DNA of 64,000 nt from Nitrosopumilus sp. (lineage in GTDB: Archaea > Thermoproteota > Nitrososphaeria > Nitrososphaerales > Nitrosopumilaceae). Every line of letters starts with the position of its first letter. The first letter of the stretch is position 1. The translations under genes and the position numbers were made by a program. This document shows, in pieces, positions 5,277 to 47,913 of this stretch. The notes beneath the pieces were generated by a model that made no database searches, was not told where the DNA came from, and worked only from the letters and a program-made list of their open reading frames with translations. The DNA is taken from NCBI GenBank assembly GCA_965223425.1, contig OZ245003.1, positions 128,001 through 192,000 on the forward strand, read 5' to 3'.

Positions 5277-5316
5277 TTATCACATAGACGCAAAATGAAA
5301 TTATTAAATCGTCGTA

Positions 5317-5538
5317 TTGATTAACAAATACATGAAAATGTGCAGTATTTGTCACAAAGTTTCCGCAACAGAACAAGATCATCTTGATTGTATTCAGAGA
5401 AGAAGTATCGAAATGGAAGACGAGAATTTTAAAAATAATATTCCTGAAAAGCTGAATCTGTCAAAAAATAATCAAGATTTAGGTATTGAAGTGAAAGCTA
5501 TCTTAGAGCATCTTACAAAAGAAAAAGAGGAAAAATAA
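5317..5538 (+). CDS. Small hypothetical protein with CxxC...H..C motif
   Basis: ORF with host-like composition. Confidence 0.6.
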   Translation: MINKYMKMCSICHKVSATEQDHLDCIQRRSIEMEDENFKNNIPEKLNLSKNNQDLGIEVKAILEHLTKEKEEK

Positions 5539-5555
5539 TAATTATTTTGACTTGC

Positions 5556-6296
5556 TTATCGTTCTTGAGTTGTAGGTCTTATCAAAATCTCATTAACGTT
5601 AACATGAGATGGAGATTCAACTGCGTACAAAATTGCGTTTGCAATATCTTCTGCTTGTAGTGCTTGCATCTTTTTCGTATTTTCAACAAATCCTTTCAAA
5701 GATTCATCAGTGATTGTATCGTTAAGCTCTGTAGCTACAACTCCAGGTTCAATACTAGTTACTCGGATGTTAGAGCGTACGCTAAATTCTTGTCTTAGTC
5801 CTTCACTGAATGCTGCAACTGCATGTTTTGTTGCACAATAAACACTGCCAGCTGGAAAGACAATTCTTCCGGCTACAGATGAGAGATTAACAATATGGCC
5901 AGATTTTTTTTCTTGCATATGTGATATTACTGCACCTGTAGAATACAGTACGCCCTTGATGTTCACATCAATCATTTTATCCCATTCATCTACCTTGAGG
6001 CTTTTGAAGAAACTCAGAGGCATCAATCCGGCATTATTTACAAGAATGTCAACAGAATTCCATTTATCTAAAACTGCTTTAGCAAAATTTTCACATTCTG
6101 ATCTTTGTGTAACGTCTAGTTTTTGATAAAATACTTCTCCACCGTCAGCGGAGATCTTTTTTGCGAGTTCTTCTAACCTATCAACTCTTCTAGCGCCAAT
6201 AGCTACTTTAGCACCTGCTTTTGATAGTGCCAAAGCAGTGGCAAATCCTATTCCACTGCTTGCCCCAGTTATTATTGCCACCTTATCTTTAATCAT
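5556..6296 (-). CDS. Short-chain dehydrogenase/reductase
   Basis: TGASSGIG, NNAG, YCATK. Confidence 0.92.
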   Translation of the reverse strand: MIKDKVAIITGASSGIGFATALALSKAGAKVAIGARRVDRLEELAKKISADGGEVFYQKLDVTQRSECENFAKAVLDKWNSVDILVNNAGLMPLSFFKSLKVDEWDKMIDVNIKGVLYSTGAVISHMQEKKSGHIVNLSSVAGRIVFPAGSVYCATKHAVAAFSEGLRQEFSVRSNIRVTSIEPGVVATELNDTITDESLKGFVENTKKMQALQAEDIANAILYAVESPSHVNVNEILIRPTTQER

Positions 6297-6371
6297 CTAA
6301 ATACTTCAAACAGGTTCAATTTCAACATCGTAAAAATGTTTAGGCGTTAAGAGATTTCAGGCAGATACTAG

Positions 6372-6535
6372 GGTTCTGTGAAGTTATCGGGAGTTAACCC
6401 CTATAACTCGACTTTGACATATCGACTATTCGGATTACCAATGGTGTGCCGGATTCCGTCATCGCCGGCTCAAAAGTGCCGGACTGCGCTTCACATATGT
6501 CATCTCTACTGCCCCTAAACCTAGGGGGCAGCTTG
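6372..6535 (-). ncRNA. Putative omegaRNA scaffold overlapping the tnpB 3' end and TIR
   Basis: Hairpin 6509-6531; TGACATAT/ATATGTCA pairing (6415-6422 with 6495-6502); GAGTTA/TAACTC hairpin (6391-6409). Confidence 0.6.
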
Positions 6536-7590
6536 CGTGATATGTTGTTCATGGCAGCGACAATATCCCTGTCCATAAACAAACCGCAATTATTACACGA
6601 CAGTTTACGATGCTGTTGCATGTCCTCTTGGAGTCTCTTTCCGCATTGCGGACACTGCGTGCTCGTGTTTCTTGGGTCTACTGTCTCGACTGGCGGGAGC
6701 CCGACCCGTTGGGCTTTGTATTCTATTTGGCGTTGCAGCTCGTAGAATTGCCACCCGTTCAATCTGCGCCTGTACTTGTTGCCCTGACCATTTCCTTTTT
6801 TGTAGAGTTTTCTAACTCCTTTCAGGTTTTCTAGAACGATTGCAGCCTTTTCTTTGACGGCATTATCCACAATATCCTTTGATATTCTGTGGATGCATTG
6901 TTTTGCTCTGTCAGTCAGTCTTCTCTGTTTTTCCTTGCAGAACTGGTTTTTCTTCCTGCGGTCATTTCTGTGGAAGCCTGCCCTGGCGTGTATTGTGTTC
7001 TCCTTTATGGATAGCAGCTTGTTTGTCTTGCAGACTGTCACCCCTTCCTCGCTCCCACACGTCACATTTCTTAGGTTTCTGTCTATTCCAACTTTCTTGG
7101 TGCACTCTATCTCTTGTACTTTTTTTGAAACACAAAGACTGATGTTGAGGGCAGTCAGTGAAAACGAGCGCACCGTCAGGGCGGGATCAGACAGGATTTT
7201 TTGGGCGTGATCGTTGAGTAAAATGTTGATTGGGTTATGCTTCTTGTATGGGATTGTTAGTAGTGCACCGTTGTGTTTTATGCCGTAACAGTTTGTCATA
7301 AAGGGATTTTTGACTATTGGGCCTCTTATTCTGACACCTCGTTTGACTGATTGTTTTCTGTTTGATAATATGCCTGCAGCCCTTGATATTGCATTTAGTT
7401 TGTATGACGATAAAATGTCATAGTTACGTAATTCATGATAACATAACATGGACAGCCTCTTCATATTGTGAGTGTCTTCTTTCAACCCTATCTTGATGCA
7501 ATGATTGGCCATCTTTGTGAATGTAGCCGCCATATCCATTAGGTCAGAGTTCGGCGCATATTTCTGTGATATTGGCTTTATCGCCTTCAG
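6394..7590 (-). CDS. tnpB: TnpB RNA-guided endonuclease (start uncertain; must lie inside the element)
   Basis: RuvC GIDRN, VLENL, DRDIVAA; zinc finger CPQCG...CNNCG. Confidence 0.88.
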   Translation of the reverse strand: MKAIKPISQKYAPNSDLMDMAATFTKMANHCIKIGLKEDTHNMKRLSMLCYHELRNYDILSSYKLNAISRAAGILSNRKQSVKRGVRIRGPIVKNPFMTNCYGIKHNGALLTIPYKKHNPINILLNDHAQKILSDPALTVRSFSLTALNISLCVSKKVQEIECTKKVGIDRNLRNVTCGSEEGVTVCKTNKLLSIKENTIHARAGFHRNDRRKKNQFCKEKQRRLTDRAKQCIHRISKDIVDNAVKEKAAIVLENLKGVRKLYKKGNGQGNKYRRRLNGWQFYELQRQIEYKAQRVGLPPVETVDPRNTSTQCPQCGKRLQEDMQQHRKLSCNNCGLFMDRDIVAAMNNISRKLPPRFRGSRDDICEAQSGTFEPAMTESGTPLVIRIVDMSKSSYRG

Positions 7591-7704
7591 CGAATATCTT
7601 GCGGTTTGGAGGCTTGTACATTTTGGGAATTGACATATAACTCCCGATAACTTCACAGAACCGATACTAGCAACTTTATTAAAAGAAAAATTGCAAAATA
7701 AGTT

Positions 7705-7926
7705 ATGAAGTCTGAAAAATGTGCTTATTGCGGCGATCTGACGGATTTGCCCTTTCAATGCAATTATTGTAAGGACCAGTTTTGTTCAGAACACAGGCTT
7801 CCTGAAGAACACAGATGTGTAAAACTCAGCCAGATTAGAGCAAAAAGATTTGGTGAAAAAAAAGTCATACGAGACGGCGGACCAAACAAGCCAAATATTT
7901 TCAAACGACTTTTTGGGAGATTTTAA
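7705..7926 (+). CDS. AN1-type zinc finger protein
   Basis: CAYCG...PFQCNYC...FCSEHRLPEEHRC. Confidence 0.9.
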   Translation: MKSEKCAYCGDLTDLPFQCNYCKDQFCSEHRLPEEHRCVKLSQIRAKRFGEKKVIRDGGPNKPNIFKRLFGRF

Positions 7927-7929
7927 AAA

Positions 7930-8214
7930 TCAATAAGGGCTTTTGTCAGGAGAAATCTTTGCGCGTCTACCTTGATAGATTAAGGCAATAGCAAGTGCAA
8001 ACATCACCATTGCAGTTAATGGAAAATTTTGGGGAGCAGGCAGAACAAACCAATAGTAAACGCCAAAACCAACAGAGACTGCCGCTTGTACCCAGAGTTT
8101 AATCCATTTTGGAGCTTTGATTAATCTGCTAACAACTTCAACAGAAAAGATTCCAATTACTGGATAAATTGTATAAAATAGAAAATCAATTACATCAACG
8201 CCTGTATGGGACAT
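7930..8214 (-). CDS. Small membrane protein
   Basis: Three hydrophobic segments. Confidence 0.7.
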   Translation of the reverse strand: MSHTGVDVIDFLFYTIYPVIGIFSVEVVSRLIKAPKWIKLWVQAAVSVGFGVYYWFVLPAPQNFPLTAMVMFALAIALIYQGRRAKISPDKSPY

Positions 8215-8247
8215 ATGGTATCAAAATAAAACATGCATAATTTCTAT

Positions 8248-8805
8248 CTAATCTTCCCAACGAACCTTGGTTGCAGCATTTTTGGTAATTAATGCCTGAG
8301 CATTCTCATATGGAATTGTGGCAATGTCCTCAGTTTTGAAGGGACCATATTTTTCAAGATCAGCACCAACAATCTCATCTACTTCTTTGAGAAACCGAAT
8401 AGCAATTTTCTTTATTTTGTGATTCTGGGCTACTGATTCAAGAAATTTTGACTTTCCGTTGATTGTTGCAGAAAGAATCATTTCTGTTCTTTCTTTTTGT
8501 TCCTCTTGTGAATCCAAGATGAATTTTTCTTCGTCTAGGAGATGTCCAATTTCTAGATCAGAAGATTTTGAAATTTTGTCTAATCGAATATGAATTAGTA
8601 GTGATGTTAGTTCTGTTGCCATTTCTATCAAAGCATCTTTGATTTTGCTTTCTATACCATCAAATTCTTGTTTTCTTAAATTACCGATAAAGTCAGCCAG
8701 GTTTCTATAAAAATTTGGATCAATTTCCAATATAGGATTGTTTTCAGTTTCCCGTAAAACTGTATGATGTAAAGAGTTGATATCAATTTGATTTGTTTCA
8801 GACAT
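8248..8805 (-). CDS. GINS subunit (Gins51/15-type)
   Basis: Helical A domain and C-terminal B domain RFLKEVDEIVGADLEKYGPF...IPYENAQALI. Confidence 0.8.
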   Translation of the reverse strand: MSETNQIDINSLHHTVLRETENNPILEIDPNFYRNLADFIGNLRKQEFDGIESKIKDALIEMATELTSLLIHIRLDKISKSSDLEIGHLLDEEKFILDSQEEQKERTEMILSATINGKSKFLESVAQNHKIKKIAIRFLKEVDEIVGADLEKYGPFKTEDIATIPYENAQALITKNAATKVRWED

Positions 8806-35936: not shown

Positions 35937-37322
35937 CTATTCTCTCTGTGAGCTCTCAGGTGGTTTTTTGACAAATCCTCCCTCAACTGATTCAGGTGGA
36001 GGAATTTTCTTGGACTTGCCTAATCCGATTGTTGTAATAATTATTGATGATAAAATGATAAAGAATATGATTTGTGGATATGCATCAGCGTTTGGCAGGC
36101 CCAAAGTAATTGGATATGTAGCAAGTACCGCCGCAGCTAATCCTCTAGGAATCATAGAATTTGTTACAGCTCTGTCCAATTTTGAGAATCTTTTAGTGAG
36201 TGTTATCCTGACAACAAATGATCTTCCAAAGAAGACGGCAACAGTGACCAAAACTCCAAATATTACATATTCTATTTGTCCAAAACTTGCCATTAATCCA
36301 ACAAATACAAAGAAGAAAGATCTAACCAAAAATGTTAGTTGGTTGTGTGTGGGATCATCTACTTCAATTTTTGGCAGTTTGAATTTGAGTATTCGTGAGA
36401 GGTGGTTTTTGTTTCCAAGCATCAAGCCAAATACCAATGCTGTCAAAGCTCCAGATTCTCCAAATGAATTTGCCAGGAAGAACAGAACGAACAAGATTCC
36501 TAATGTGAGCATATATCCGTGTTGGGCATTACCGAGTTTTGTTGAAACATACATCCATGGGATTCCTACCCCAAACCCAAGAACCAAACCTACAATGACT
36601 GCCCTTCCAATAGTCTCTTGTAATGTTTGAAGATCAAAATGTCCTGCAAGTACAGCCTCAAATAATATGAACGCAACAATCATAGCTAGAATATCAGTTA
36701 GAGCGGATTCAAAACTAAGCATTGATCTAGCCTCTTCTGAAATTTTGACATTTCTAACAAGACCAAAAACAATTGCCGAGCTGCTTCCGCCAACAATTGA
36801 ACCTAGCAAAATACTCTCTAACCAAAGCCATCCTAGCGCATAATGAGCCGCAGTTGAAATAATTACAACGGATAAAATAAAACCAAGAATTGCAATCGTT
36901 GTTGAAAAATGTGCAGTCTTTATGATGTGTTTGATGTCTAGATTTAGTCCGCCATCAAACATGATGATGATTAGTGCAAGCGCTGCAAAATATGGCACTA
37001 CCTGGATAACAGCTTCTGGTTGAATTATTCCAAAGACAGGTCCTATAATTACTCCAAGAATCATCAGGAATGCTATATCTGGAACACCCGTTTTTTTGAA
37101 GAACGCCTCTCCTGCCACTCCAAGTAAAATTACTACTCCTGCTGCCAGTAATACTACATGAGCTGCAGCAATCGGCCCATCTTGTGTAGATAACGTTTCT
37201 ATAGAATTATGTAATTCCACAATTTTATCTAAAATCAAATTTGGATTAAAATCAGGCAATTGAAGCATGTCCTTACTTTGTCCTGCGATTAGATTCAGAA
37301 TAGAGAAAATTATGGGATTCAT
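35937..37322 (-). CDS. CPA1 cation:proton antiporter (NhaP-type)
   Basis: FDGGL, FESALTD, PRGLAAAVLA. Confidence 0.88.
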   Translation of the reverse strand: MNPIIFSILNLIAGQSKDMLQLPDFNPNLILDKIVELHNSIETLSTQDGPIAAAHVVLLAAGVVILLGVAGEAFFKKTGVPDIAFLMILGVIIGPVFGIIQPEAVIQVVPYFAALALIIIMFDGGLNLDIKHIIKTAHFSTTIAILGFILSVVIISTAAHYALGWLWLESILLGSIVGGSSSAIVFGLVRNVKISEEARSMLSFESALTDILAMIVAFILFEAVLAGHFDLQTLQETIGRAVIVGLVLGFGVGIPWMYVSTKLGNAQHGYMLTLGILFVLFFLANSFGESGALTALVFGLMLGNKNHLSRILKFKLPKIEVDDPTHNQLTFLVRSFFFVFVGLMASFGQIEYVIFGVLVTVAVFFGRSFVVRITLTKRFSKLDRAVTNSMIPRGLAAAVLATYPITLGLPNADAYPQIIFFIILSSIIITTIGLGKSKKIPPPESVEGGFVKKPPESSQRE

Positions 37323-37440
37323 TAATGACTGAATGTAAGTATATGCGGATAAAAGTTAAACTGGGACTGTTTGATATTTTTAGCCTCTATCGTTAATTTT
37401 TAGATACACATTAAATCAACCTTAACAATACTTTTCTTAC

Positions 37441-37983
37441 TTGAGTGCAACTGAAGCATTACGCGAAGATCACAAACAAATTAAACGCTTGGAGAAAATA
37501 ATCATAAAATGTTATACAGAACTTTATGCGGGAAAAAATATTCCTTTATCTGATATAGATAAAATCACATTAGTTATTGAAGAATTCTTAGATTCAATTC
37601 ACTATTCAAGAGAAGAAGACTCTTATTTTCCTTGTGTTGCGAGTTACGATCATCTTAAAGAAGAAATCCATAAATTATTAGTAGAACATGAATTTTCTAG
37701 AAATATTTCAACACAAATCAAAAAACATCTTAAAAGATGGAAAGAAGGAGAAGATGCAAGAGAACCTGTAGCTAGATTTCTAAGAACATATTCAATATAT
37801 CTTATCGATCATATGACTAAGGAAGAAAACTTTTTTGATAAAGCTGAATCAGACGTACTCTCTAAAGAAGAAGAATACGATATGTATGAACAATTCAAAT
37901 CGGTCATGACAACTTCTAAGAAACTGGAAGATATGATCAAAGAAATTGAGTATTTGGAAAATCAATCTTGGTTTCAAAATTAA
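37441..37983 (+). CDS. Hemerythrin-domain protein
   Basis: EDH, H..REE..YFP, EH, H..KEE. Confidence 0.85.
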   Translation: MSATEALREDHKQIKRLEKIIIKCYTELYAGKNIPLSDIDKITLVIEEFLDSIHYSREEDSYFPCVASYDHLKEEIHKLLVEHEFSRNISTQIKKHLKRWKEGEDAREPVARFLRTYSIYLIDHMTKEENFFDKAESDVLSKEEEYDMYEQFKSVMTTSKKLEDMIKEIEYLENQSWFQN

Positions 37984-38019
37984 CGTAAGCTCTTTATGGG
38001 CTGTTTAGATGTTTTATTC

Positions 38020-38535
38020 ATGAAGCCTTTCATTCTTTGGATGACCGGTCTTCCTTGTTCAGGAAAGACTACCATCGTAAAAGATCTGCAAAAAGACATC
38101 CAAAATTTGGCAATGCTTGATGGTGATGAATTAAGAGAATGGTTTTCTCCAAAAGATTTTTCAAGAGCAGGACGTGATGAACACAACAAGAAAGTTGCCC
38201 ATTTGGCCAAGCTTTTGCTTAATCATGGTGTTCCAAGTGTTGTATCTCTAGTATCTCCATATGTTGAGAACAGACAAAATGCTAGGGAGATTGTTGATGC
38301 AGGCGATCAGTTTGCAGAGTGTTATGTAAAATGTTCACTAGAAAAATGTGAAGAAAGAGATGTGAAAGGCATGTATGCTAAAGCAAGAAAAGGAGAAATT
38401 AAAGGATTTACAGGAATTGATGATCCTTATGAAGCTCCAGAAAATGCAGATTTAATAATTGATACAGAACACGAGCCATTATCAGAAAGCGCAAATAAAG
38501 TAAGGGGTTTTCTTAAAACAAGAGACCTACTTTAA
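38020..38535 (+). CDS. cysC: Adenylyl-sulfate kinase
   Basis: TGLPCSGKTT, LDGD, FTGIDDPYE. Confidence 0.95.
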   Translation: MKPFILWMTGLPCSGKTTIVKDLQKDIQNLAMLDGDELREWFSPKDFSRAGRDEHNKKVAHLAKLLLNHGVPSVVSLVSPYVENRQNAREIVDAGDQFAECYVKCSLEKCEERDVKGMYAKARKGEIKGFTGIDDPYEAPENADLIIDTEHEPLSESANKVRGFLKTRDLL

Positions 38536-39345
38536 TTTTTTAAATTGTGTAACTATTTTTTCATGAATTAATCCATTTGTTGCTAGAATTCCATTTTGAT
38601 GATAAACGTCTTTGTTGTTGTATGTGATATCATTTCCTAGCATATCTGTCATTTTTCCTCCAGCTTCTGAAATAATGCAATAAGATGCAGCTGAGTCCCA
38701 TTCTTTCATTTTGTTTGTAGTCGTGATATATGCTTCTGCTTCCCCCGAACTAATCTTTCCAACTTTTAATGAACTGCCTATACTTGTAAAGTCTTCCATG
38801 CCCAACTCTCTGATAAATGATTTTTCCTTATCTGATAAATGATGTCTTGATCCAACAGTTCTACATTGTGAAAGCTCTGCAATTTTAGTTACAGACATTT
38901 TCGTCCACTCGTTATTTGAATATCTAAATGCGCCACTTCCTTTTTGTGCAACAAAGAATGTTTCTTCTGTAGGCCAAGCAATAACTCCAAGAACCGGTTT
39001 TTTGTTTTTTATCAGTGCAATCATAACCGTAAATTCCCCTGTTTTGTCAATAAAATCAGAAGTACCATCAAGCGGGTCCACAATCCAAATTGTTTCCTTT
39101 GATAATCTGACTTGATCATCTTTGTCTTCTTCGGATAAAACTGCATGTTCTGTTTGTTGGAGAAACCCTTTAATGATTTCATTACTCTTAAGGTCTGCTT
39201 CTGTGATGGGAGAATCATCATTTTTTTGGAATGCCTCAAAATCTCCCTGATAGATCTCTAAAATTGCCTTTCCAGCCTCATTTGCAGCCCTGATTGCAAT
39301 ATCTAACTCAGGAATTTTATCTGATATTGGTATGTCTTTCAACAT
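38527..39345 (-). CDS. cysQ: 3'(2'),5'-bisphosphate nucleotidase
   Basis: SEE, VDPLDGT, EWDSAA. Confidence 0.9.
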   Translation of the reverse strand: MLKDIPISDKIPELDIAIRAANEAGKAILEIYQGDFEAFQKNDDSPITEADLKSNEIIKGFLQQTEHAVLSEEDKDDQVRLSKETIWIVDPLDGTSDFIDKTGEFTVMIALIKNKKPVLGVIAWPTEETFFVAQKGSGAFRYSNNEWTKMSVTKIAELSQCRTVGSRHHLSDKEKSFIRELGMEDFTSIGSSLKVGKISSGEAEAYITTTNKMKEWDSAASYCIISEAGGKMTDMLGNDITYNNKDVYHQNGILATNGLIHEKIVTQFKKLK

Positions 39346-39352
39346 AGGTTCC

Positions 39353-39559
39353 CTATGTTGTAAGTTCCGGCTTTAATGTCCAGACAACCCCTAGAACAAT
39401 AAATGGAATCGACATAATCCCTATGATGCCAAGTATGGTGTTAAACTGTGATTCTGAAACCTGTGGGTTGTTTACTATCCATGGTAATGGCAAAGTGATA
39501 ATTATCCAAATAATTCCTAAAAGTATTATTAACTTAGCTTTTGATTTCCTGTCTTTCAT
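39353..39559 (-). CDS. Small two-TM membrane protein
   Basis: Two hydrophobic helices. Confidence 0.65.
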   Translation of the reverse strand: MKDRKSKAKLIILLGIIWIIITLPLPWIVNNPQVSESQFNTILGIIGIMSIPFIVLGVVWTLKPELTT

Positions 39560-39604
39560 AACATCTCCAATTCCTACGTTGTATTAAATTCATATGAATT
39601 CATT

Positions 39605-40408
39605 TTATTGATTCCCCTCCACCCACTGCAAGTATTGCACCAGTAGTCCATATGCGTCATCTGACATAAAATATATTATAGCTTTTGCTATTTCTTCTGG
39701 TTGGCCAATACTGCCTTGGGTGCTCACCACCCATGAATTCTTTGTCTTTTTGAGTTTGTAAAAACGGTTTTGCCATATCTGTATCTGCTACTCCCGGACA
39801 CGCAATTGACTATAATTTTGTCCTTGGCATGTTCAAGTGCCCAACATTGTCAGTATAGCTAAAGCAGCTTTTGAGGCAGTGTATTATCGGCATTAAAATC
39901 TTGATGTGTCTTTAGTCCTGCATCCGACGAAATGTTAATTATCGAACCGCCTGTTTTTTCCAAATGAGGGATTGCTTCCTTGGCAAATCTAAACTGTCCT
40001 GTAAGATTACGTTTAAGACTTGATTCCATCCCAAAATCTGATTTCATGTAATTGTTTGATCTTTGGAAATATGCCGGGCATTATTTACAAGAATATCCAA
40101 TTTACCAAATTTTTCAATTGTTTTGTTTACAACTTTTTTTTAAATTCATTCCTATTTCTAATACCAGCTGCAATACCTACTGCACTAGGAATTTCAACAC
40201 TGATTTCTAATCTTTCTTGATCTCTTGCTGTAATAATTACAGTTGCTCCATTTTCTGATAAACATCTTTGCTGTAGCAAAACCTATTCCACGACTTCCAC
40301 CTGTTACTCAGATGCCTTGTCACACTTTATTGCCAAAGTTCTAGGTAGCAAAACCTATTCCACGACTTCCACCTGTTACTATGGAACTTTCCCAGATAAT
40401 CTCAACAT
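39605..40408 (-). pseudogene. SDR oxidoreductase pseudogene with many frameshifts
   Basis: Fragments VTGGSRGIGFA, GGSIINISSDAG, PGVADTDM, IGQPEEIAKA. Confidence 0.85.
40273..40380. repeat. Perfect 36-bp direct repeat around a 36-bp insert
   Basis: GTAGCAAAACCTATTCCACGACTTCCACCTGTTACT at 40273-40308 and 40345-40380. Confidence 0.95.
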
Positions 40409-40573
40409 TTTTTACATAAAAATTCGTAATTCATAGATCAATTCTGTCTCATACAGGCATAAAATATTTCATAAAAATCTATAGAAAACTATAATTTATT
40501 ATCTAAAATGTTAAATAGTTAAAGTTACTATATTAATTAATGCCGAAGGATATAATTCCTATCGACTGAAATT

Positions 40574-40668
40574 GCGTAGCCCCGCAGAACGAGAAAGGCA
40601 ATCAGACGTTATAACGTTCTGACAACGAGAGGAAATCTCTCAAAGTTCTGTAGCAAAGGGGTTTACGC
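40574..40668 (+). ncRNA. Candidate structured non-coding RNA
   Basis: Four nested stems in a GC-enriched intergenic patch; TATA-like TTAAATA at 40511. Confidence 0.55.
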
Positions 40669-40670
40669 CA

Positions 40671-41099
40671 TCATCTTTCTAAAATATCGACAGATACGGA
40701 TCCCATCACATTTCCGTTTGGATTGATAGTAATTGAAATTTCCTGCATTTCTGAAATCAAAACGGTTTTTTGTCCATCATATTCCCACGTGAAATATTCA
40801 GATGCCCCAGCTTGATGCTTGGTGCCCTCAAGTTTAAAATCTTCAGAAAAATCAAATCTTTCTCCGTTCAGTATTATTGACAATGTGTTTGGGCTACTGC
40901 CATTTGGCACAAATCTAAAATAATATTCTCCTTTGTCCACAGTAAATACATCAGTATATACTCCGTTAACATACAAATCAGGTTCTGCAAGAGTTATGTG
41001 AAATACTACATTGTTCTCTCTCTCTGATGGGTCTGATGAAAAAACTACTAAAATTGCAACTATGCCGATTATTGGAATTAACATAATTTTTTTGTCCAT
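40671..41099 (-). CDS. Membrane-anchored hypothetical protein
   Basis: N-terminal TM, beta-rich domain. Confidence 0.7.
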   Translation of the reverse strand: MDKKIMLIPIIGIVAILVVFSSDPSERENNVVFHITLAEPDLYVNGVYTDVFTVDKGEYYFRFVPNGSSPNTLSIILNGERFDFSEDFKLEGTKHQAGASEYFTWEYDGQKTVLISEMQEISITINPNGNVMGSVSVDILER

Positions 41100-41248
41100 T
41101 TACACAAGTTCCAAATTCCATTATAAAAATAAATTTCTAATTTAATTTAGAACTAAGCATTAAAAATATTGTTTTTCTCCAATCTTTACAGTTGATACTT
41201 CTAATTTCTTAAGATGCCCTAATGCTCATGAATCATTAATTAAATTCA

Positions 41249-41638
41249 TTAATTTTTCATTTTTAACATATTAGGTGTAGTGACTGCCTCTTCAAAATCA
41301 TAAAGTTTTATCACTCCATTTCTAACATTTTCAGATTCAATTTTTTTATTATGTGCAAAATCATCTCTGATTTCTCTGGTCTCATCAAGCTTTTGTTGAA
41401 TTTTTACTCTTGCACTTTCATCAATTTTATTTTTAAAATCTATATGATGTTTCATTATTCTAGATAACCAAACAATTTTTGTACCAAATGATGCGGTTTG
41501 ATCTTCATCAAACACTGTTTTTGCCCATAAGGGAAAATCATTTTTATATAGTAAAAATAAAACTGGCATAATTACAATAAGTGTAGAATCTAACACTGCT
41601 ACGCAGCTTAAGAAATTTCTCTGAATTCTGTTAACCAA
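41249..41638 (-). pseudogene. Degenerate AT-rich ORF, possibly HEPN-like (RDDFAH)
   Basis: RxxxxH motif; ragged start. Confidence 0.3.
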
Positions 41639-41950
41639 GTTAACATATTCTTTGTCTGTGGATTTTTTAGATCTTCAGGTAAATCAAAACCAGATGGTTC
41701 GCCCATGAATTCATCTCTAAAAAAATACCTGAATAGATTTTTCAGTCAATTATAGTGTTAAAATGACAAAATGTCCCCTTTGTGGAGCCATTAGATGATG
41801 ATGATACATCTCTTCTGCAGCCTCATATTCAAAAAATTTACCCTTAAAGAAAAATATCATTCCTGAAGCCTAAATTTTGTTAGTTAAATTTTATGTACTG
41901 TAAACCAATCTTTACACTTGAAATTAAGTACGTATTTTAAAATTAAACTC

Positions 41951-42592
41951 ATGCCTAATTTACATAATAAATGGTCAAAACAACCACGACCAGGCATTGG
42001 TGAAAAAATTAATGATACTCTCAAGCCTAAAGGTCCTTTAAAACCAAGAGTACAGGAAGGAATTAAAAAATTACAATTACAAATTAAAAAATTAGATTCA
42101 ATGTTGACCAATTTACAAGAACGTGATGCAAAACTATTTCAACGAATTGTAGAGGCTACACAAAAACATGATACTCAAACCAGTAAAGTTCTTGGTAATG
42201 AATTAGCAGAAGTAAGAAAAGTTACAAAAATTTTGAGCAGTGCTAGAATAGCATTAGAACAGATTGAATTACGATTAACTACTTGTAGTGATCTTGGAGA
42301 TACTGTAGTTGCAATCATGCCAACTATGGGGCTGATGAAGAATCTAAAATCTTCTCTTGGTAAGATAATGCCTGGAGCAGAACAAGAAATCGGTCAAATG
42401 GCAGAAATGCTTGGAGGATTTATGACAGAAAGTTTCTCAGGAGACTCAGCATTTGGAGTTGATGAAACTACCAATTCAGAATCTGAAGCAATTCTTAAAG
42501 AAGCTGCCGCTGTTGCAGAAAGTTCTGCAGGCCAAATGTTTCCTTCAGTTCCAACAGAGACACAAGAAGCAACTACTGCAAAATTTCTATAA
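41951..42592 (+). CDS. ESCRT-III/Snf7-family protein, CdvB paralog
   Basis: NELAEVRK, ALEQIELRL, ILKEAAAVAE...FPSVP. Confidence 0.88.
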   Translation: MPNLHNKWSKQPRPGIGEKINDTLKPKGPLKPRVQEGIKKLQLQIKKLDSMLTNLQERDAKLFQRIVEATQKHDTQTSKVLGNELAEVRKVTKILSSARIALEQIELRLTTCSDLGDTVVAIMPTMGLMKNLKSSLGKIMPGAEQEIGQMAEMLGGFMTESFSGDSAFGVDETTNSESEAILKEAAAVAESSAGQMFPSVPTETQEATTAKFL

Positions 42593-42601
42593 TTCTAAAA
42601 T

Positions 42602-43075
42602 TTAATCGCCAAGGGGCTCTCTGGATTCTCTAATTTTCTTTACTCTGTTGCCTTCATCATCAATAACTCTGTCAACTCCCGAAAGTTTTTCTTTTAAATT
42701 GTTGATAATTGTCCCTACTTCATCAGCTTCATTTTCTACCTGTTTTCTTTTACTTGCAAGTTCTTGAATTCCTCTGTTTTCTTCATCTATGTACTCACTA
42801 ACTTTTTGTAACTTCTCCTTGAGATTTTTAATATCTACTGATTCCTCTTCGATATCTTTTTCAAGTAAAGTTCTCTTATCTTTGAGATTTTTAATCATTA
42901 AACCAACATAATCAATTGCCTCCTCTAATTTTGCACGTTTTCCCATCAACTCTCCAATCCCAATCTCACTTGCAGATTCAATTGAAGTAGATTCTGTAGA
43001 TTCCGAATTGACGTTTTCTTCAGTTTTCTCTTCTACTCTTTCTCCACCTTCTCCTTTTTTGAATTTATCAAACAT
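42602..43075 (-). CDS. Coiled-coil hypothetical protein
   Basis: Long heptad pattern. Confidence 0.7.
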   Translation of the reverse strand: MFDKFKKGEGGERVEEKTEENVNSESTESTSIESASEIGIGELMGKRAKLEEAIDYVGLMIKNLKDKRTLLEKDIEEESVDIKNLKEKLQKVSEYIDEENRGIQELASKRKQVENEADEVGTIINNLKEKLSGVDRVIDDEGNRVKKIRESREPLGD

Positions 43076-43325
43076 TTTATGATTTTCTTTTCAAATTGGG
43101 AATAAAAAGTTATTATGAATCTCAAAGCTGACCTTGTGAATAATTTTTAGTCAATTAAAGAAAAAATGGTGATTATCTCACCGATATTGAATTTCTGACT
43201 TCTTCGATAAGGCCTTTGGTCTTTCTGAATACATGGTCAATTCTCCAAACTGCAAAATTTTGATATCTTGATCTACCCAGGATCGATTTTTTGGAAAATT
43301 CTGGTATCTTTTTGACTGAAACGCA

Positions 43326-43351
43326 TGTTCCGCTTTGTGTTCCGCTTTAAA
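43326..43351 (+). promoter_or_regulatory. Tandem TGTTCCGCTTT repeat abutting a TTTAAA box
   Basis: Copies at 43326-43336 and 43338-43348 upstream of a wHTH gene. Confidence 0.5.
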
Positions 43352-43395
43352 GTTTCAAAATGTCCCTCATAAAGCTAATAGTCGTACACCAAGAC

Positions 43396-43683
43396 ATGTC
43401 AAAACAACAATACAGGTCCGAAATGGGCATAATGGGTGATATCTTAGACGTTACCGCCGACGGCGGTCGTGATGGAATCATTGTATCTGCAATCTCTCGT
43501 AAAGCCAACCTATCTCACTATGCAGTACTAGACAAATGTGAGAAACTGGTAGAAGCAGGCTTGGTCGAATCCGTCAAAAATGACAGGAACAGAGTCTTTT
43601 TGATAACTGAAAAAGGACTACAATTTTTTCAGGAATTCAAAAGATTCCAGGGACTAGTAGAAAGCATGAATCTAAGGTATTGA
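43396..43683 (+). CDS. Winged-helix transcriptional regulator
   Basis: YRSEMGIMGDIL...ANLS...LITEKG. Confidence 0.85.
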   Translation: MSKQQYRSEMGIMGDILDVTADGGRDGIIVSAISRKANLSHYAVLDKCEKLVEAGLVESVKNDRNRVFLITEKGLQFFQEFKRFQGLVESMNLRY

Positions 43684-43687
43684 GCAA

Positions 43688-44737
43688 ATGAACTCTCAAA
43701 TCGTACCAATTCATAGGAAAGAGTCTCTTCGGGAGGATGGAATGCTTTTTGTAAGGACTGATGGTATCCTCGAAACAATGGTTAAGGCCCCTTTGATAAT
43801 TACCGGCTTGATTGTTGTTGCGCTAACAATGCCAATACAGCCTTCGTTCAGCTCCACTCGAACTCTTGATCTTACCCTCTACTCAGATGGGTCAGTGCAT
43901 GTCTCTACTCAACTAGACGTGAATCCACTAGAGCCTGATTTTGAAGTTAGCCTATTTGGTCCATCTGTTGACAACTTTGTCGCAGTTGGTGAAAATGGCT
44001 TTTTGTTATCTAGCGAAATAATCGGTGATAAAGTAACTGTGGACACTTTTGGTTCTTCATCTATTACAATTGATTATGATGTCCATGACTTGATTTCAAA
44101 AGAAGGAAGAATCTGGACTTTTTCTCTTGATTCACAAAATGATTATTCGTTATTAATGCCGCCAAACTCTATTATCGTTGGTATGAGTGCATTTCCATCA
44201 AACATGGAGTTGGTTAATGATCAAACAAAATTAGACTTGGGCACTGGCATGTCCGAAATTAATTACGTCTTTGGTAACACAAACCCATCAACCACAAACC
44301 CATCAACCACAAACCCATCAACCACAAACCCTGTGCAAACAACTATTGATATTTCTACAATTGCTATAATTGGCGGTTCTGTTGCAGCAGCTACAGCTGG
44401 GGCAATAATTACCCTTAAAAGAAAACAAACAAAATCTTCATCTGTTTTAGAAACTGAATCTAGTTCTCAATCTCAAACAACTATTGATTCTCTTGACACT
44501 GAAACTATTTTCAATCTACGACCGGAAATGCGTGAGGATGACAAAGAAATTGTTAAATTTATTTATGAAAATGGTGGACAAGCTTTGGAAAGTGAATTAA
44601 GAAAGAAATTCCTTCAACCTAGAACTACAATGTGGAGAGCAGTAAAACGGTTAGAACGACAAGGAATAATTGAAATTTCCAAAAAAGACTTGCACAACCT
44701 GGTTAAATTGAAGAAAGAACTGGAGGAAGAAGAATGA
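43688..44737 (+). CDS. Membrane protein with extracellular domain and C-terminal HTH
   Basis: TNPST x3 linker, TM, PRTTMWRAVKRLERQG. Confidence 0.8.
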   Translation: MNSQIVPIHRKESLREDGMLFVRTDGILETMVKAPLIITGLIVVALTMPIQPSFSSTRTLDLTLYSDGSVHVSTQLDVNPLEPDFEVSLFGPSVDNFVAVGENGFLLSSEIIGDKVTVDTFGSSSITIDYDVHDLISKEGRIWTFSLDSQNDYSLLMPPNSIIVGMSAFPSNMELVNDQTKLDLGTGMSEINYVFGNTNPSTTNPSTTNPSTTNPVQTTIDISTIAIIGGSVAAATAGAIITLKRKQTKSSSVLETESSSQSQTTIDSLDTETIFNLRPEMREDDKEIVKFIYENGGQALESELRKKFLQPRTTMWRAVKRLERQGIIEISKKDLHNLVKLKKELEEEE

Positions 44738-45759
44738 AAACTATCACAACTTTTGGCCTATTGATCTTAGTTGCCAGTATGGCACTTGGAGGCATGACTA
44801 GTAATGTTTCTGCTCAAGATGATCCTGCTGTTCTTCTAAAGATCGCAAAACGTGCACAAGAACAAGTCCATAATCAAATTTCCAATGACTCTTCAGATAA
44901 AGTAAAGGGTTTGTTTGAAGAGGGAACCCAAAAAGTCAATGCTTTGGAAAAAGCACTTGGGAACGGTGATGTTGACTCTGCAAAGGAAAACTTTCTTTCT
45001 GCTATGAAGATTTTCAAAGAAATTTTTAGACATTTAGCAACATCATCTGATAATGTATCTACTGAAGAATCCGTTCCAAGTGATTCCATTTCTGTAGAAA
45101 CCAATGTTAAAGATCCATCAAATGATCTTCAAAGATTACAAGGATATGTTGATAATCTAAAAACAATTGCTATAAAACATAATGTTCCAGTTGATTTTTC
45201 TGAATTAGATGAATTGTTTGTTAAAGCAAGACAACAGATAAGCGATCATCAATTTGCTTTGGCATTGGAAACACTTTATGAAATTAAAGAGATTACTGTA
45301 GAAATAGACAAAGAGCTTCGTGAAGAAGCCTTAAAACAAGAATCTCAACGCGCTAAAGATTACGCTCAAAAATATCTAGAACAGCTTGATCGATTAATAG
45401 AACACGCTAAAAAACAGGGCGTTGCTGACGAAATTATAGAACAACTAGAAACAGCCAAAGAAAATCTTTCTTCAGCAGATAATCCACGTGAGATTGTTAA
45501 GGAAATCAGGAAAATCATGTCACTTAAGGATCAATTTGAATTAACAAAAAATGACGGACTTGAATCTAGAGTTTTACAAGTTGAAAAAACATTATCAGAG
45601 TTATCTCAAACAGATGGAGTAGATCCGGATGATCTGGCAGATGCCGAAGAAACACTTCAAAGTATCAAACGCTATCTAACAGAAGGCGAATTTGATACAG
45701 CTAATCAACTTTTGATATATCTGGAAAACCAATTACAAGAAACTAAAAATTCTCTCTAA
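44734..45759 (+). CDS. Secreted alpha-helical protein
   Basis: Signal peptide, helical repeats. Confidence 0.7.
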   Translation: MKTITTFGLLILVASMALGGMTSNVSAQDDPAVLLKIAKRAQEQVHNQISNDSSDKVKGLFEEGTQKVNALEKALGNGDVDSAKENFLSAMKIFKEIFRHLATSSDNVSTEESVPSDSISVETNVKDPSNDLQRLQGYVDNLKTIAIKHNVPVDFSELDELFVKARQQISDHQFALALETLYEIKEITVEIDKELREEALKQESQRAKDYAQKYLEQLDRLIEHAKKQGVADEIIEQLETAKENLSSADNPREIVKEIRKIMSLKDQFELTKNDGLESRVLQVEKTLSELSQTDGVDPDDLADAEETLQSIKRYLTEGEFDTANQLLIYLENQLQETKNSL

Positions 45760-45798
45760 TGTGTTATCATAAACTTCATATACATTTTCTAAACAGCA

Positions 45799-45999
45799 TT
45801 GAACATGGCATCTAAGGCAATTGTAGTTGGAGTTGCGATTCCAATGATTATAGTGGGTGGCTTGATGGCTTGGTTATGGGCTCCAATGGAAGAAGATCTT
45901 CAAAATCAAGTAGAATTAGTTGGAAGCACCATCGGTATATTGGGAATAGTGTTCTTTATCACGGGATTGTTCTATTCAAAAGAACCTGTAATGCATTAG
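45799..45999 (+). CDS. Small membrane protein
   Basis: Two TMs. Confidence 0.65.
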   Translation: MNMASKAIVVGVAIPMIIVGGLMAWLWAPMEEDLQNQVELVGSTIGILGIVFFITGLFYSKEPVMH

Positions 46000-46040
46000 A
46001 AACTCATTGAATAAATAATGAAAAAAACTACTATTATCAC

Positions 46041-46754
46041 TTGAAAGTAAGACTATTTGAGATATTTACATCCGTCGAAGGTGAAGGCATCCTATATGGA
46101 ACAAAGACTCTCTTTGTAAGACTAGCCGGATGTCCCTTCACCTGTTTTTATTGTGACACCAAAGAATCCCTTCCACTTGATTCCGGTACAGAATATTCAA
46201 TTGAAGAAGCAAATCAACTGATTGATTCTAATCTCAAAAACCAAACCTACAAAGTTAATTTTACCGGTGGTGATCCATTAATTCAACACGAAGCCGTAGC
46301 TTTACTTGCCAAGCACATACAAGACAAAAAAATTCCTACATATCTCGAGTCATCATGTTTTGATATTGATAGATTTAATCATGTTTTACCATTTATTGAT
46401 ATTGTAAAGATTGAGTTTAAAACAAAAGACTCTGATTTTGTAGACTCTGAACATTATAAAAAATTAATTGATCATACTATGAAATGTCTTGAATCCTCTG
46501 TAAAGACAGAGAAAACAACTTATATCAAAATTGTAGTTAGCTCAAAAACTCAATTAAACGAATTTAAAAAATTGATAAATCAAATTTTTGACGTTGTTTC
46601 TAAAGATCAAATTGATGGATTTATTATACAACCCACTTATGGCATCTCTGAACCATCATTGGATCTTTTGTTAAGTTTGTATGATATAGTGTATCCGTAT
46701 TATGTTGATGTCAAAGTAGTTCCACAATTACACAAATTCATTGGAGCACCATAA
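46041..46754 (+). CDS. queE: 7-carboxy-7-deazaguanine synthase (radical SAM)
   Basis: EGEG, CPFTCFYCDT, TGGDP, PQLHK. Confidence 0.93.
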   Translation: MKVRLFEIFTSVEGEGILYGTKTLFVRLAGCPFTCFYCDTKESLPLDSGTEYSIEEANQLIDSNLKNQTYKVNFTGGDPLIQHEAVALLAKHIQDKKIPTYLESSCFDIDRFNHVLPFIDIVKIEFKTKDSDFVDSEHYKKLIDHTMKCLESSVKTEKTTYIKIVVSSKTQLNEFKKLINQIFDVVSKDQIDGFIIQPTYGISEPSLDLLLSLYDIVYPYYVDVKVVPQLHKFIGAP

Positions 46755-47589
46755 CATTGCCACCTGCCTAAACCTGTCTAGATACCAGTTTCCGACATGT
46801 TTTTTTATTGACGTGACATTTTTTAGATTATGAAAGGAGGTTCCAACATACGATATGAGATAATACCTGCATTTGAAGAGTCCAAAAACTACAATGTACA
46901 CATCACAGAAAGCTACAGTCAAATTCTTTGTCGTCTACAGCAAAAGGGAAATGTGTTTAGCCCACAAGAATTTTGTGACAGAAATCAGGATCTCTTCTCA
47001 GCAGGTAAAAGATCAAAAGAGAGTTTTAGATCTGCCGGGTTCTGAGTGATGAGGGAAAAGAAATGTATCTGAATGCAAGTAATACGAAAATATCCAAAAA
47101 TGAAGAGATAAAAGAGAATGCCATAAAAAAACAAATGAAAGAATACAGGATTAACAGAAACACAGCAATTCTAAACCTCAGAAAATGGCGACCTGATGTT
47201 TTTTAAATTACTGTCTAGTAACTGAACTGTAAAGTTATGAAAAAAACTAGTTTCCTAAAGTGCAGATCCGACATCCCGTTTGATCCAAGCTGCCGTCTTC
47301 AAGCCCGACCCCGGTGAACAACCCGACAATGACGGCAATTACTGGAGGACCATAATGGGTCTTTTGGATGCCGTAAGCGAGATGAAATCCCAGATTGATT
47401 CCATGAAAAAAGACAATCACAAAAAACTAGAGTTCTGCTGCGTTGGCTGCAGTAGTCCACGAGATGCAAGAGTGTCCTGCCTGCGGCTCCCAGCTGAGGA
47501 GAATTTACGAGCCTGCCTGACACGCTGTTAAGACCTGCCGGTTCCCAGAAAATGAAAAAAATATTAGTGGATTTTTAATTCAACAAGCA

Positions 47590-47913
47590 ATGGAGCCTGA
47601 CTATTCCGGCATGGCAACTGACTTGTTAAACGCAGGAATGGGCGATGTCGGCAGATTAAAGTTCATTATTGAATGCATCAAAAATCAAAAGCCGTTATAC
47701 AATACAGACAAGTCATACCTGACACGAAAATACCAGGAACTTGAAACAAAACTAGAGGCATTATCAGGCAAGAAAAAACCCAAGACCATAATATCTGAAA
47801 ATGAGTCAGATAAGATTGTAGACCAGGCACTGTCCAGAGAAAATCAACCGGAGACAGCCATGCCCCCAAGCAAACAAAGATCATTTCTTAGAAGACTGTT
47901 TGGCAGAAGATGA
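47590..47913 (+). CDS. Hypothetical protein
   Basis: GDVGRLKFI...KPLYNTDKSYL. Confidence 0.6.
   Translation: MEPDYSGMATDLLNAGMGDVGRLKFIIECIKNQKPLYNTDKSYLTRKYQELETKLEALSGKKKPKTIISENESDKIVDQALSRENQPETAMPPSKQRSFLRRLFGRR

Follow-up and report, generated by a model that had tools for sequence, protein, structure and literature searches.

A tnpB element with IS6-like ends in Nitrosopumilus and an oriented motif at its insertion sites

The role of TnpB is understood for transposons that excise without leaving a scar (IS605, IS607), where the target of the transposase is also the target-adjacent motif (TAM) of the nuclease. Here we describe a tnpB element of another build, found in a 64,000-nucleotide stretch of the genome of the archaeon Nitrosopumilus sp. 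(the window, G000:C1:128001-192000): it has the ends of an IS6-like transposon, and tnpB is its only protein gene. We consider it probable that this is a non-autonomous transposon carrying an OMEGA module (obligate mobile element-guided activity), TnpB plus an ωRNA, and that it is mobilised in trans, uses TTR (R, purine) as its TAM and persists by homing or retention.

In content, the closest described systems are the IS1341-type members of IS200/IS605 (e.g. ISDra2). The present element is like them in its RuvC and zinc-finger TnpB, in a predicted guide-RNA scaffold that shares sequence with the gene's 3' end and extends as far as the right end, in a short 5'-side motif (which would make the empty site read as TAM plus guide match) and in non-autonomy. 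IS200/IS605 transposons have no terminal inverted repeats (TIRs) and no target duplication, end in subterminal hairpins and use a Y1 transposase whose target is the TAM (PMC13565253), whereas the element described here has inverted ends of 25 nt, and a variable 8-bp duplication separates it from the candidate TAM. IS607 elements, which encode a serine recombinase, also differ: they lack both TIRs and target-site duplications (TSDs), and both are present here.

The termini are those of another group. With the IS6 family (IS26, IS257) and the archaeal elements called IS6-like, the element has in common GG tips, a CTGT motif and 8-bp target repeats, the hallmarks of the family being 8-bp target repeats, ends of 15-20 bp, GG tips and a cTGTt motif (PMC7986276). 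The tip GGTTCTGT is present on both ends of the element, and the 'caaa' motif of the IS6 consensus is not. We use the label IS6-like since archaeal membership of the family is disputed, Harmer and Hall having argued that the archaeal members are possibly a separate family (PMC6807381). The IS6 review counts one member with a passenger gene and two miniature inverted-repeat transposable elements (MITEs), and the word TnpB does not occur in it (PMC7986276).

TnpB as cargo of DDE transposons has already been published. In the DDE branches of Altae-Tran et al. (2023; DDE-2, -3, -5 and -6), TnpB lies in symmetrical-ended transposons with DDE transposases; in the IS630-linked DDE-6 the transposase stands beside tnpB, whereas here tnpB is alone (PMC10691335). 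Neither IS6 nor a geometry of TAM and duplication is named in the DDE passages of that paper, and the present clade may be one of its branches. The TnpB-linked DDE families named in a 2026 review are ISL2, IS630 and IS1031 (PMC13565253), and the rarity of prokaryotic DDE partners is treated as an open point in a recent review. Fanzor proteins are comparable as cargo of DDE transposons with target duplications and with a TAM tied to the insertion site (PMC13565253, PMC3627910). In Fanzor elements the TAM includes the 5' duplication, which is fixed (TA or TTAA), and the RNA scaffold includes the 3' one (PMC13565253), whereas here the duplication is variable and would supply the first 8 nt of the guide, the TAM would lie outside it, and the host is archaeal. 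Cas12f (type V-F) includes the closest solved relatives of the protein; here there are no CRISPR array and no cas genes, and the guide would come from the transposon flank. An initial annotation of the locus knew of no good description of the pairing of TnpB with IS6-type ends. A literature search found no paper that pairs TnpB with IS6 or gives the present geometry, the supplements of the 2023 census lying outside that search, and none that mentions TnpB together with Nitrosopumilus. TnpB linked to DDE transposases is in print (IS630, ISL2, IS1031), which gives this kind of pairing a precedent; the version described here is IS6-like, non-autonomous and archaeal.

Anatomy, copies and empty site

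The element occupies positions 6372-7662 of the window (1291 bp), in a genome of 2.64 Mb in two contigs (G000, 99.99% complete). Its inverted arms, 6372-6396 and 7638-7662, are 25 nt each and 100% complementary (GGTTCTGTGAAGTTATCGGGAGTTA), and an exact 8-bp duplication, GATACTAG, adjoins them at 6364-6371 and 7663-7670; direct reading thus confirmed the size, the perfect repeats and the duplication that the initial annotation had given. The 25-mer occurs 26 times in the genome at up to 3 mismatches and the reversed control pattern 0 times, so the repeat is not a product of chance. Across the 1291 bp a single long frame, on the minus strand, stays open from one arm to the other. It is tnpB, the sole long frame of the element that matches any protein family; no IS6 DDE transposase, or any other transposase, is encoded within, and the element is therefore non-autonomous. 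We call the tnpB 5' end the left end (LE) and the tnpB 3' end the right end (RE). The features are as follows.

6352-6371, minus strand: flank predicted to encode the guide, made up of the RE-side duplication (6364-6371) and ~12 nt beyond it, an extent predicted from the geometry
6364-6371, no strand: target-site duplication GATACTAG, tnpB 3' (RE) copy, read from the sequence
6372-6396, no strand: TIR at RE (tnpB 3' end), containing the tnpB stop TAA at 6394-6396
6372-6590, minus strand: predicted ωRNA scaffold, overlapping the tnpB 3' end, from covariation, 5' limit approximate
6394-7656, minus strand: tnpB, 420 codons plus stop, with the proposed GTG start (7656-7654) inside the LE repeat
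7638-7662, no strand: TIR at LE (tnpB 5' end), the perfect complement of the RE arm
7663-7670, no strand: target-site duplication GATACTAG, tnpB 5' (LE) copy, read from the sequence
7671-7673, minus strand: candidate TAM, which reads TTG in tnpB orientation (CAA on plus), directly 5' of the LE-side duplication

The product matches Pfam Cas12f1-like_TNB (PF07282) at 8.4e-20 and NCBIfam guided_TnpB (NF040570) at 110.1 bits, over a cut-off of 100, with a weak match to OrfB_IS605. In an alignment with four relatives of 60-63% identity, D192 of GIDRN, E276 of ENLKG and D362/D364 of MDRD are invariant, in motifs that we take to be RuvC-I, -II and -III; so are C335, C338, C354 and C357, two CxxC pairs that form the zinc finger. 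The earlier assignment of a tnpB with three acidic RuvC motifs and a zinc finger is thus borne out by the family models and by the alignment, and the TnpB nuclease is apparently active. Its start is uncertain, the conserved protein beginning ~21 residues inside the proposed GTG. By sequence match, the best-scoring solved relatives are Cas12f proteins (9nzq, 8j12 and 7wju, ~7e-11), the TnpB of ISDra2 is a weak match (4e-4), and the NCBIfam Cas12f2 model aligns at 1e-25, far under its cut-off. The main contig holds 14 frames above the Pfam TnpB cut-off, 13 of them of at least 340 codons.

Pairing of the TIR matches into elements gives ~14 related copies in this genome with different 8-bp duplications, the outcome that the check proposed in the initial annotation had predicted. 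Eight are 1291 bp long and 96-100% identical; two are interrupted by a nested element (594234-596770 and 2292571-2294969; L169, L170), two have one altered end (783913-785206, 654737-656024), two belong to a second tnpB subfamily with ends GGTTCTGTCAAGTTATAGGCACCT (1781136-1782425, 2433495-2434822), and one is a 344-bp deletion derivative (1199933-1200276). All copies keep identical repeat-to-repeat boundaries. The duplications on the plus strand are GATACTAG, CTGTATTG, CTACAGGA, GGTTTATT, CAGAAATC, CC[C/T]ATGAA, GAAATAAC and TTATAGAT; in tnpB orientation they read CTAGTATC, CAATACAG, CTACAGGA, GGTTTATT, CAGAAATC, GAAATAAC, TTATAGAT, AATTATCC and TTCAT[A/G]GG. Four copies (286119, 594234, 654737, 783913) have none. 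The flanks of two inverted copies, 1325308-1326598 and 1451399-1452689, are swapped as reverse complements (TAGAAACT, TTATGTTA), which points to a ~126-kb inversion through recombination between them. The element nested in L169 and L170 encodes a DDE_3 plus helix-turn-helix transposase, IS630-like by Pfam, and the same gene also lies within a 6.85-kb element (1201385-1208237). A left-end variant, ACGTCTGT, is preceded by ...AAAAGATTTCGTATA at 654737, at 785206 and in a Nitrososphaera metagenome-assembled genome (MAG; L060), and in this left-end subfamily the true boundary may lie further out.

Window positions 5300-8800 were searched for in 80 further genomes of the genus; the flanks turned up in 79, and the element at this locus only in G000. 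The flanks abut by coordinates in, for example, G011 (12998, 13016), G054, G007, G120, G202 and G231. The empty site foreseen in related Nitrosopumilus genomes was thus found, and the four aligned empty sites each hold a single, diverged copy of the duplicated octamer; that of G120 reads ...AATACTGG|CAACTTTATT.

Flank motif and right-end RNA

The flanks were compared across 33 independent insertions whose duplications match in at least 7 of 8 positions: 29 from the automated table and four reconstructed cases (two from the swapped pair, one interrupted copy and one deletion derivative). Flanks were oriented with tnpB forward, and positions were counted outward from the 5' (left-end) duplication. 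On the 5' side, T stands at -3 in 28 insertions and at -2 in all 33, and -1 is always a purine (G in 22, A in 11). With flanks of this composition, T at -2 in 33/33 would come about by chance with a probability of ~1e-13. The mirrored motif stands on the RE side in 5/33 (Fisher 1.4e-13), and little information is carried by positions -12 to -4 or by the 12 bases past the other duplication. The motif holds in the 16/16 insertions whose frame starts in the repeat and in the 13/13 with a start 33-98 nt inside. Among random insertions into flanks of this composition, the oriented TTR would be expected in ~8% and the T-purine core in ~19%; that all fixed copies have T-purine argues for strong filtering.

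Elements without tnpB provided the control. Thirteen elements that bear a transposase and have ends of the same kind as well as a duplication (10 from relatives, two loci of unpublished genomes being excluded, and 3 from this genome) show T-purine on 2/26 sides (Fisher 1.5e-14), and five other elements that lack tnpB show it on 2/10. Six further insertions read ATA, GTA, ATG, ATG, ATA and TAT, so that 5/6 conform to T-purine; in more distant clades only this core holds. The duplication opens with C in 14 of the 33 and with T in 10 (24/33 pyrimidine), and the flank motif may extend to TTRY. Since the ends are identical over 25 nt, the transposase cannot tell them apart, and the oriented motif must come from something inside the element. 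We read TTR as the TAM of the nuclease. Some Cas12f nucleases are reported to have T-rich 5' motifs that end in a purine. Another role considered for the motif, TTG as an in-frame start codon, was rejected: it lies 11 nt before the element and out of frame, and TTA is also frequent.

The initial annotation had the element carrying only tnpB, which is right for protein genes, but the element also holds a structured RNA. An alignment of the right-end 280 nt of 23 elements shows blocks conserved beyond the need of the protein and a consensus structure of 18 pairs, 13 of which have changed on both sides. In this structure 95.2% of the cells are paired; shuffled alignments give 68.4%, none of the 500 coming up to the real figure, and sliding the partners gives 31-49%. 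Its covariation score of 0.762 falls to 0.18 or less after such sliding. In the window it consists of the helices 6588-6585/6537-6534 and 6532-6526/6514-6508 (loop UAGGUUUA), together with a stem of long range, 6502-6496/6421-6415. From this covariation, the last ~220 nt are predicted to encode an ωRNA scaffold; TnpB elements encode their ωRNA at this place, reading out of the right end (PMC13565253). All 17 occurrences of the 220-nt stretch in the genome go with tnpB elements, whole or truncated. In some copies of this genome identity is higher over the 220 RNA-coding nt than over the full element (at 1259858, 99.5% against 96%), which fits a double constraint on that stretch. An Rfam scan of 6200-7850 (E up to 1) returned only a chance match to a long non-coding RNA and no known RNA family. 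The single-sequence fold of the right end is weak when taken alone (z = -1.98).

The public sequencing runs all consist of assembled contigs. In a sponge metatranscriptome, contigs cover 6368-6767 and, at reduced depth, stretches of tnpB; being contigs, they do not tell strand, ends or level, and DNA runs are equally uneven. No contig in the public runs joins the two flanks, and contigs of two DNA runs bridge a junction of the same insertion. One apparent joint, from 6393 to 7641, falls within the inverted ends and is probably an effect of alignment.

Transposase source and relatives across archaea

IS6-like transposases encoded elsewhere in the genome are the candidates for moving the element. 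In the 99.99% complete genome, Y1_Tnp (PF01797) and Resolvase (PF00239) have 0 matches each, the same searches being positive in 6/14 and 12/14 control genomes respectively, and DDE_Tnp_IS240 (PF13610) has 9, the transposases passing this model at 44.7 bits against a cut-off of 27. Two of the IS6-like transposase frames look intact, L082:2304-3338 and a frame of 343 codons at 258918-259946. The first belongs to a 2983-bp element (915423-918405) with GGTTCTGT at both tips and the duplication CAATAGAG; the second lies in the element 256390-260474, whose ends match at 19/20 and whose duplication matches at 7/8. The transposases carry an N-terminal zinc-binding extension and align with the whole NCBI IS6 model (NF033587) at 102.6-121.9 bits, the cut-off being 125. 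A transposase remnant gene (2470410-2470880, in the element at 2470372) ends beside GGTTCTGTGAAGTTGTCGGTACATG, and 141-bp MITEs are deletion derivatives of this IS6-like remnant. The remnant and the MITEs have the outer 19/19 nt in common with the tnpB element, and the second tnpB subfamily has 29/30 nt in common with the end of a further remnant at 793017.

A tblastn search found no TnpB in the IS6 transposase loci L082-L128, and thus no autonomous form with both genes among them. The initial annotation had proposed a non-autonomous element moved in trans by an IS6-type DDE transposase and had asked for such a gene with the same ends. The lack of an own transposase and the shared termini support this, and we infer the step in trans from them; IS6-like genes, the remnant and the MITEs were found, but none of the intact transposase elements has identical ends. 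Two side observations concern these elements. That at 915423-918405 also carries an N6/N4 DNA methylase fused to HNH, and the IS6-like elements here are 2-3.3 kb long with passenger genes, the relatives L110-L122 carrying small unknown open reading frames. MITE families of 86-333 bp with GGTTCTGT ends lie at 1088904-1089044, 1892824-1892964, 641370-641470, 1768689-1768774, 1769205-1769290 and 1599170-1599502.

Pattern scanning, with one genome taken per species, gave 69 loci with TnpB relatives of 24-91% identity, in Nitrosopumilus, Nitrosotenuis, Nitrosotalea, Nitrososphaera, unclassified Thermoproteota and one Methanomethylicaceae MAG; one Nitrosopumilus MAG has ~27 copies. To these loci we added the copies of this genome and the loci from a family sample of 151 genomes, those of the unpublished G118 being left out, and limited the end test to the 67 full-length loci that are flanked on either side by 150 nt or more. 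By automated criteria, 51/67 have a pair of GGTTCTGT-type ends: 32/34 at 80% identity or more, 5/6 at 60-79%, 13/26 at 40-59% and 1/1 below 40%. Thirteen of the 16 failures were inspected by eye, and in each a right terminus can still be made out (...ACAGAACC or a close variant of it) 40-90 nt past the gene, with a left partner that is diverged, indel-bearing or of another type; the other three have a mutated or indel-bearing end. Homologues keep the same ends at a spacing of 1.21-1.37 kb. Given the 51 paired loci and the right terminus in 13/13 inspected failures, the association of this TnpB clade with GGTTCTGT ends is old and general, and not a single capture. Homologues that never carry the repeats, which would have spoken against the initial annotation, were thus not what we found, among close or distant relatives.

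In the family sample, the IS6-like transposase occurs in 61 of the 151 genomes and the TnpB clade in 12. Both occur in 9/12 (8/11 without the unpublished G118; Fisher p = 0.014, for related genomes that are not independent).

A possible route to persistence, and its alternatives

The element would have its ends and its chemistry of insertion from an archaeal IS6-like DDE transposon, with the OMEGA module in place of the transposase. An IS6-like transposase acting in trans would insert it and create the 8-bp duplication. Transcription out of the right end would then give an RNA in which the scaffold is followed by the octamer and the 3' flank as guide. The empty site, which consists of TTR, octamer and 3' flank, would offer a TAM and then a full guide match, and would be cleaved. 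The occupied site would be spared because its guide match is preceded by the ...ACC of the element end, and the left junction offers only 8 matching bases. With empty alleles cut by TnpB, repair would copy the element in (homing or retention), and only insertions beside TTR in the right orientation would persist, the filter being homing into empty alleles or their elimination. Each insertion would in this way program itself, the duplication becoming the first 8 nt of the guide and the TTR outside it the TAM. We lean slightly towards this geometry, and towards homing rather than transposition frequency as what decides which copies survive.

If true, the mechanism is the logic of IS605, with the empty site cleaved and the occupied one spared, solved for a transposon with a variable duplication. 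The flanks would then be population-level evidence, obtained without experiment, that the nuclease matters for the persistence of an element although its transposon is probably replicative. The family, which ranges from Nitrosopumilus to Nitrososphaera with at least one copy in a Methanomethylicaceae genome, would be a source of small nucleases (~400 aa) from mesophilic hosts, for each of which a short TAM is predicted and a scaffold of ~220 nt is defined.

Several observations weigh against this account. IS6-family elements are described as replicative, which leaves no empty donor site, and if this holds here a 'restorative' homing at the donor site would not apply, only homing into empty alleles; the IS6 family passages of the review describe cointegrates (PMC7986276). 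The transposases score below the NCBI IS6 equivalog cut-off (102.6-121.9 against 125), and no intact transposase of the genome has ends identical to those of the tnpB element, the exact 19-nt match being only to the remnant and the MITEs. Half of the loci at 40-59% identity fail the automated end test (13/26 pass), and 3 of the 12 genomes with the TnpB clade (G049, G076 and G125, fragmented into 90-120 contigs) have no IS6 match at 1e-30. L148 (36% identity, ends 15/24) has TAT in place of xTR. The 33 insertions are independent events and not independent lineages, those within one genome sharing a history of selection. The sole RNA run, the assembled contigs of the sponge metatranscriptome, holds nothing decisive.

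A flank motif could also arise by promoter capture, if only insertions behind a suitable flanking signal were expressed and kept; targeting of the empty site would then be unnecessary. In this subfamily the likely start codon lies in the repeat, which leaves no room for an own promoter, and the flanks are AT-rich with a mild enrichment from -12 to -4 (for instance A in 21/33 at -7). Against this, no positioned TATA-like block is seen upstream out to -36, and TTR is equally strict in the 13 insertions whose start lies 33-98 nt inside, where an internal promoter is possible. We know of no archaeal promoter element that consists of an invariant T-purine at an exact position. Promoter capture is in our view unlikely.

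To a similar degree we doubt that TnpB is here exapted, for example in regulation, or inert cargo in an element whose spread is purely that of an IS6 passenger. There are documented cases of TnpBs that were exapted or inactivated (PMC10691335), and IS6-like elements of this group often carry other passenger genes. The invariance of the catalytic motifs and zinc finger, the 13 frames of at least 340 codons and the covariation of the RNA all argue against it, and it leaves the oriented TTR motif without explanation.

Many transposases have target preferences, and TTR could be that of the mobilising transposase. Ends identical over 25 nt cannot orient the element, however, and the motif stands at 33/33 against 5/33 when mirrored and on 2/26 sides of the same-ended transposase elements, so that we hold such a preference to be very improbable as its origin.

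A tnpB element of the IS200/IS605 (IS1341) type nested with its own hairpin ends inside an IS6-derived MITE, the alternative named in the initial annotation, is scarcely credible, for although IS200/IS605-type elements are the usual setting of TnpB (PMC13565253) and MITEs with the same ends occur in the genome, the frame begins at position 7 of one repeat and stops in the other, which leaves no room for separate ends, all copies and the homologues of 24-91% identity keep common boundaries or spacing of the ends, and the search of the genome turned up neither a Y1 nor a serine transposase.

At the locus, the element has as neighbours a short-chain dehydrogenase gene (5556-6296, minus strand) on one side and a zf-AN1 gene (7705-7926, plus strand) on the other, and G+C is ~0.50 at 6400-6700 against 0.28-0.40 in the neighbouring 300-nt windows. 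TnpB genes of the ordinary type occur elsewhere in the assembly: the second contig (G000:C2, 123 kb, G+C 0.469 against 0.412 for the main contig), which may be a plasmid, a virus or contamination, carries three at 36361-47890, without GGTTCTGT ends.

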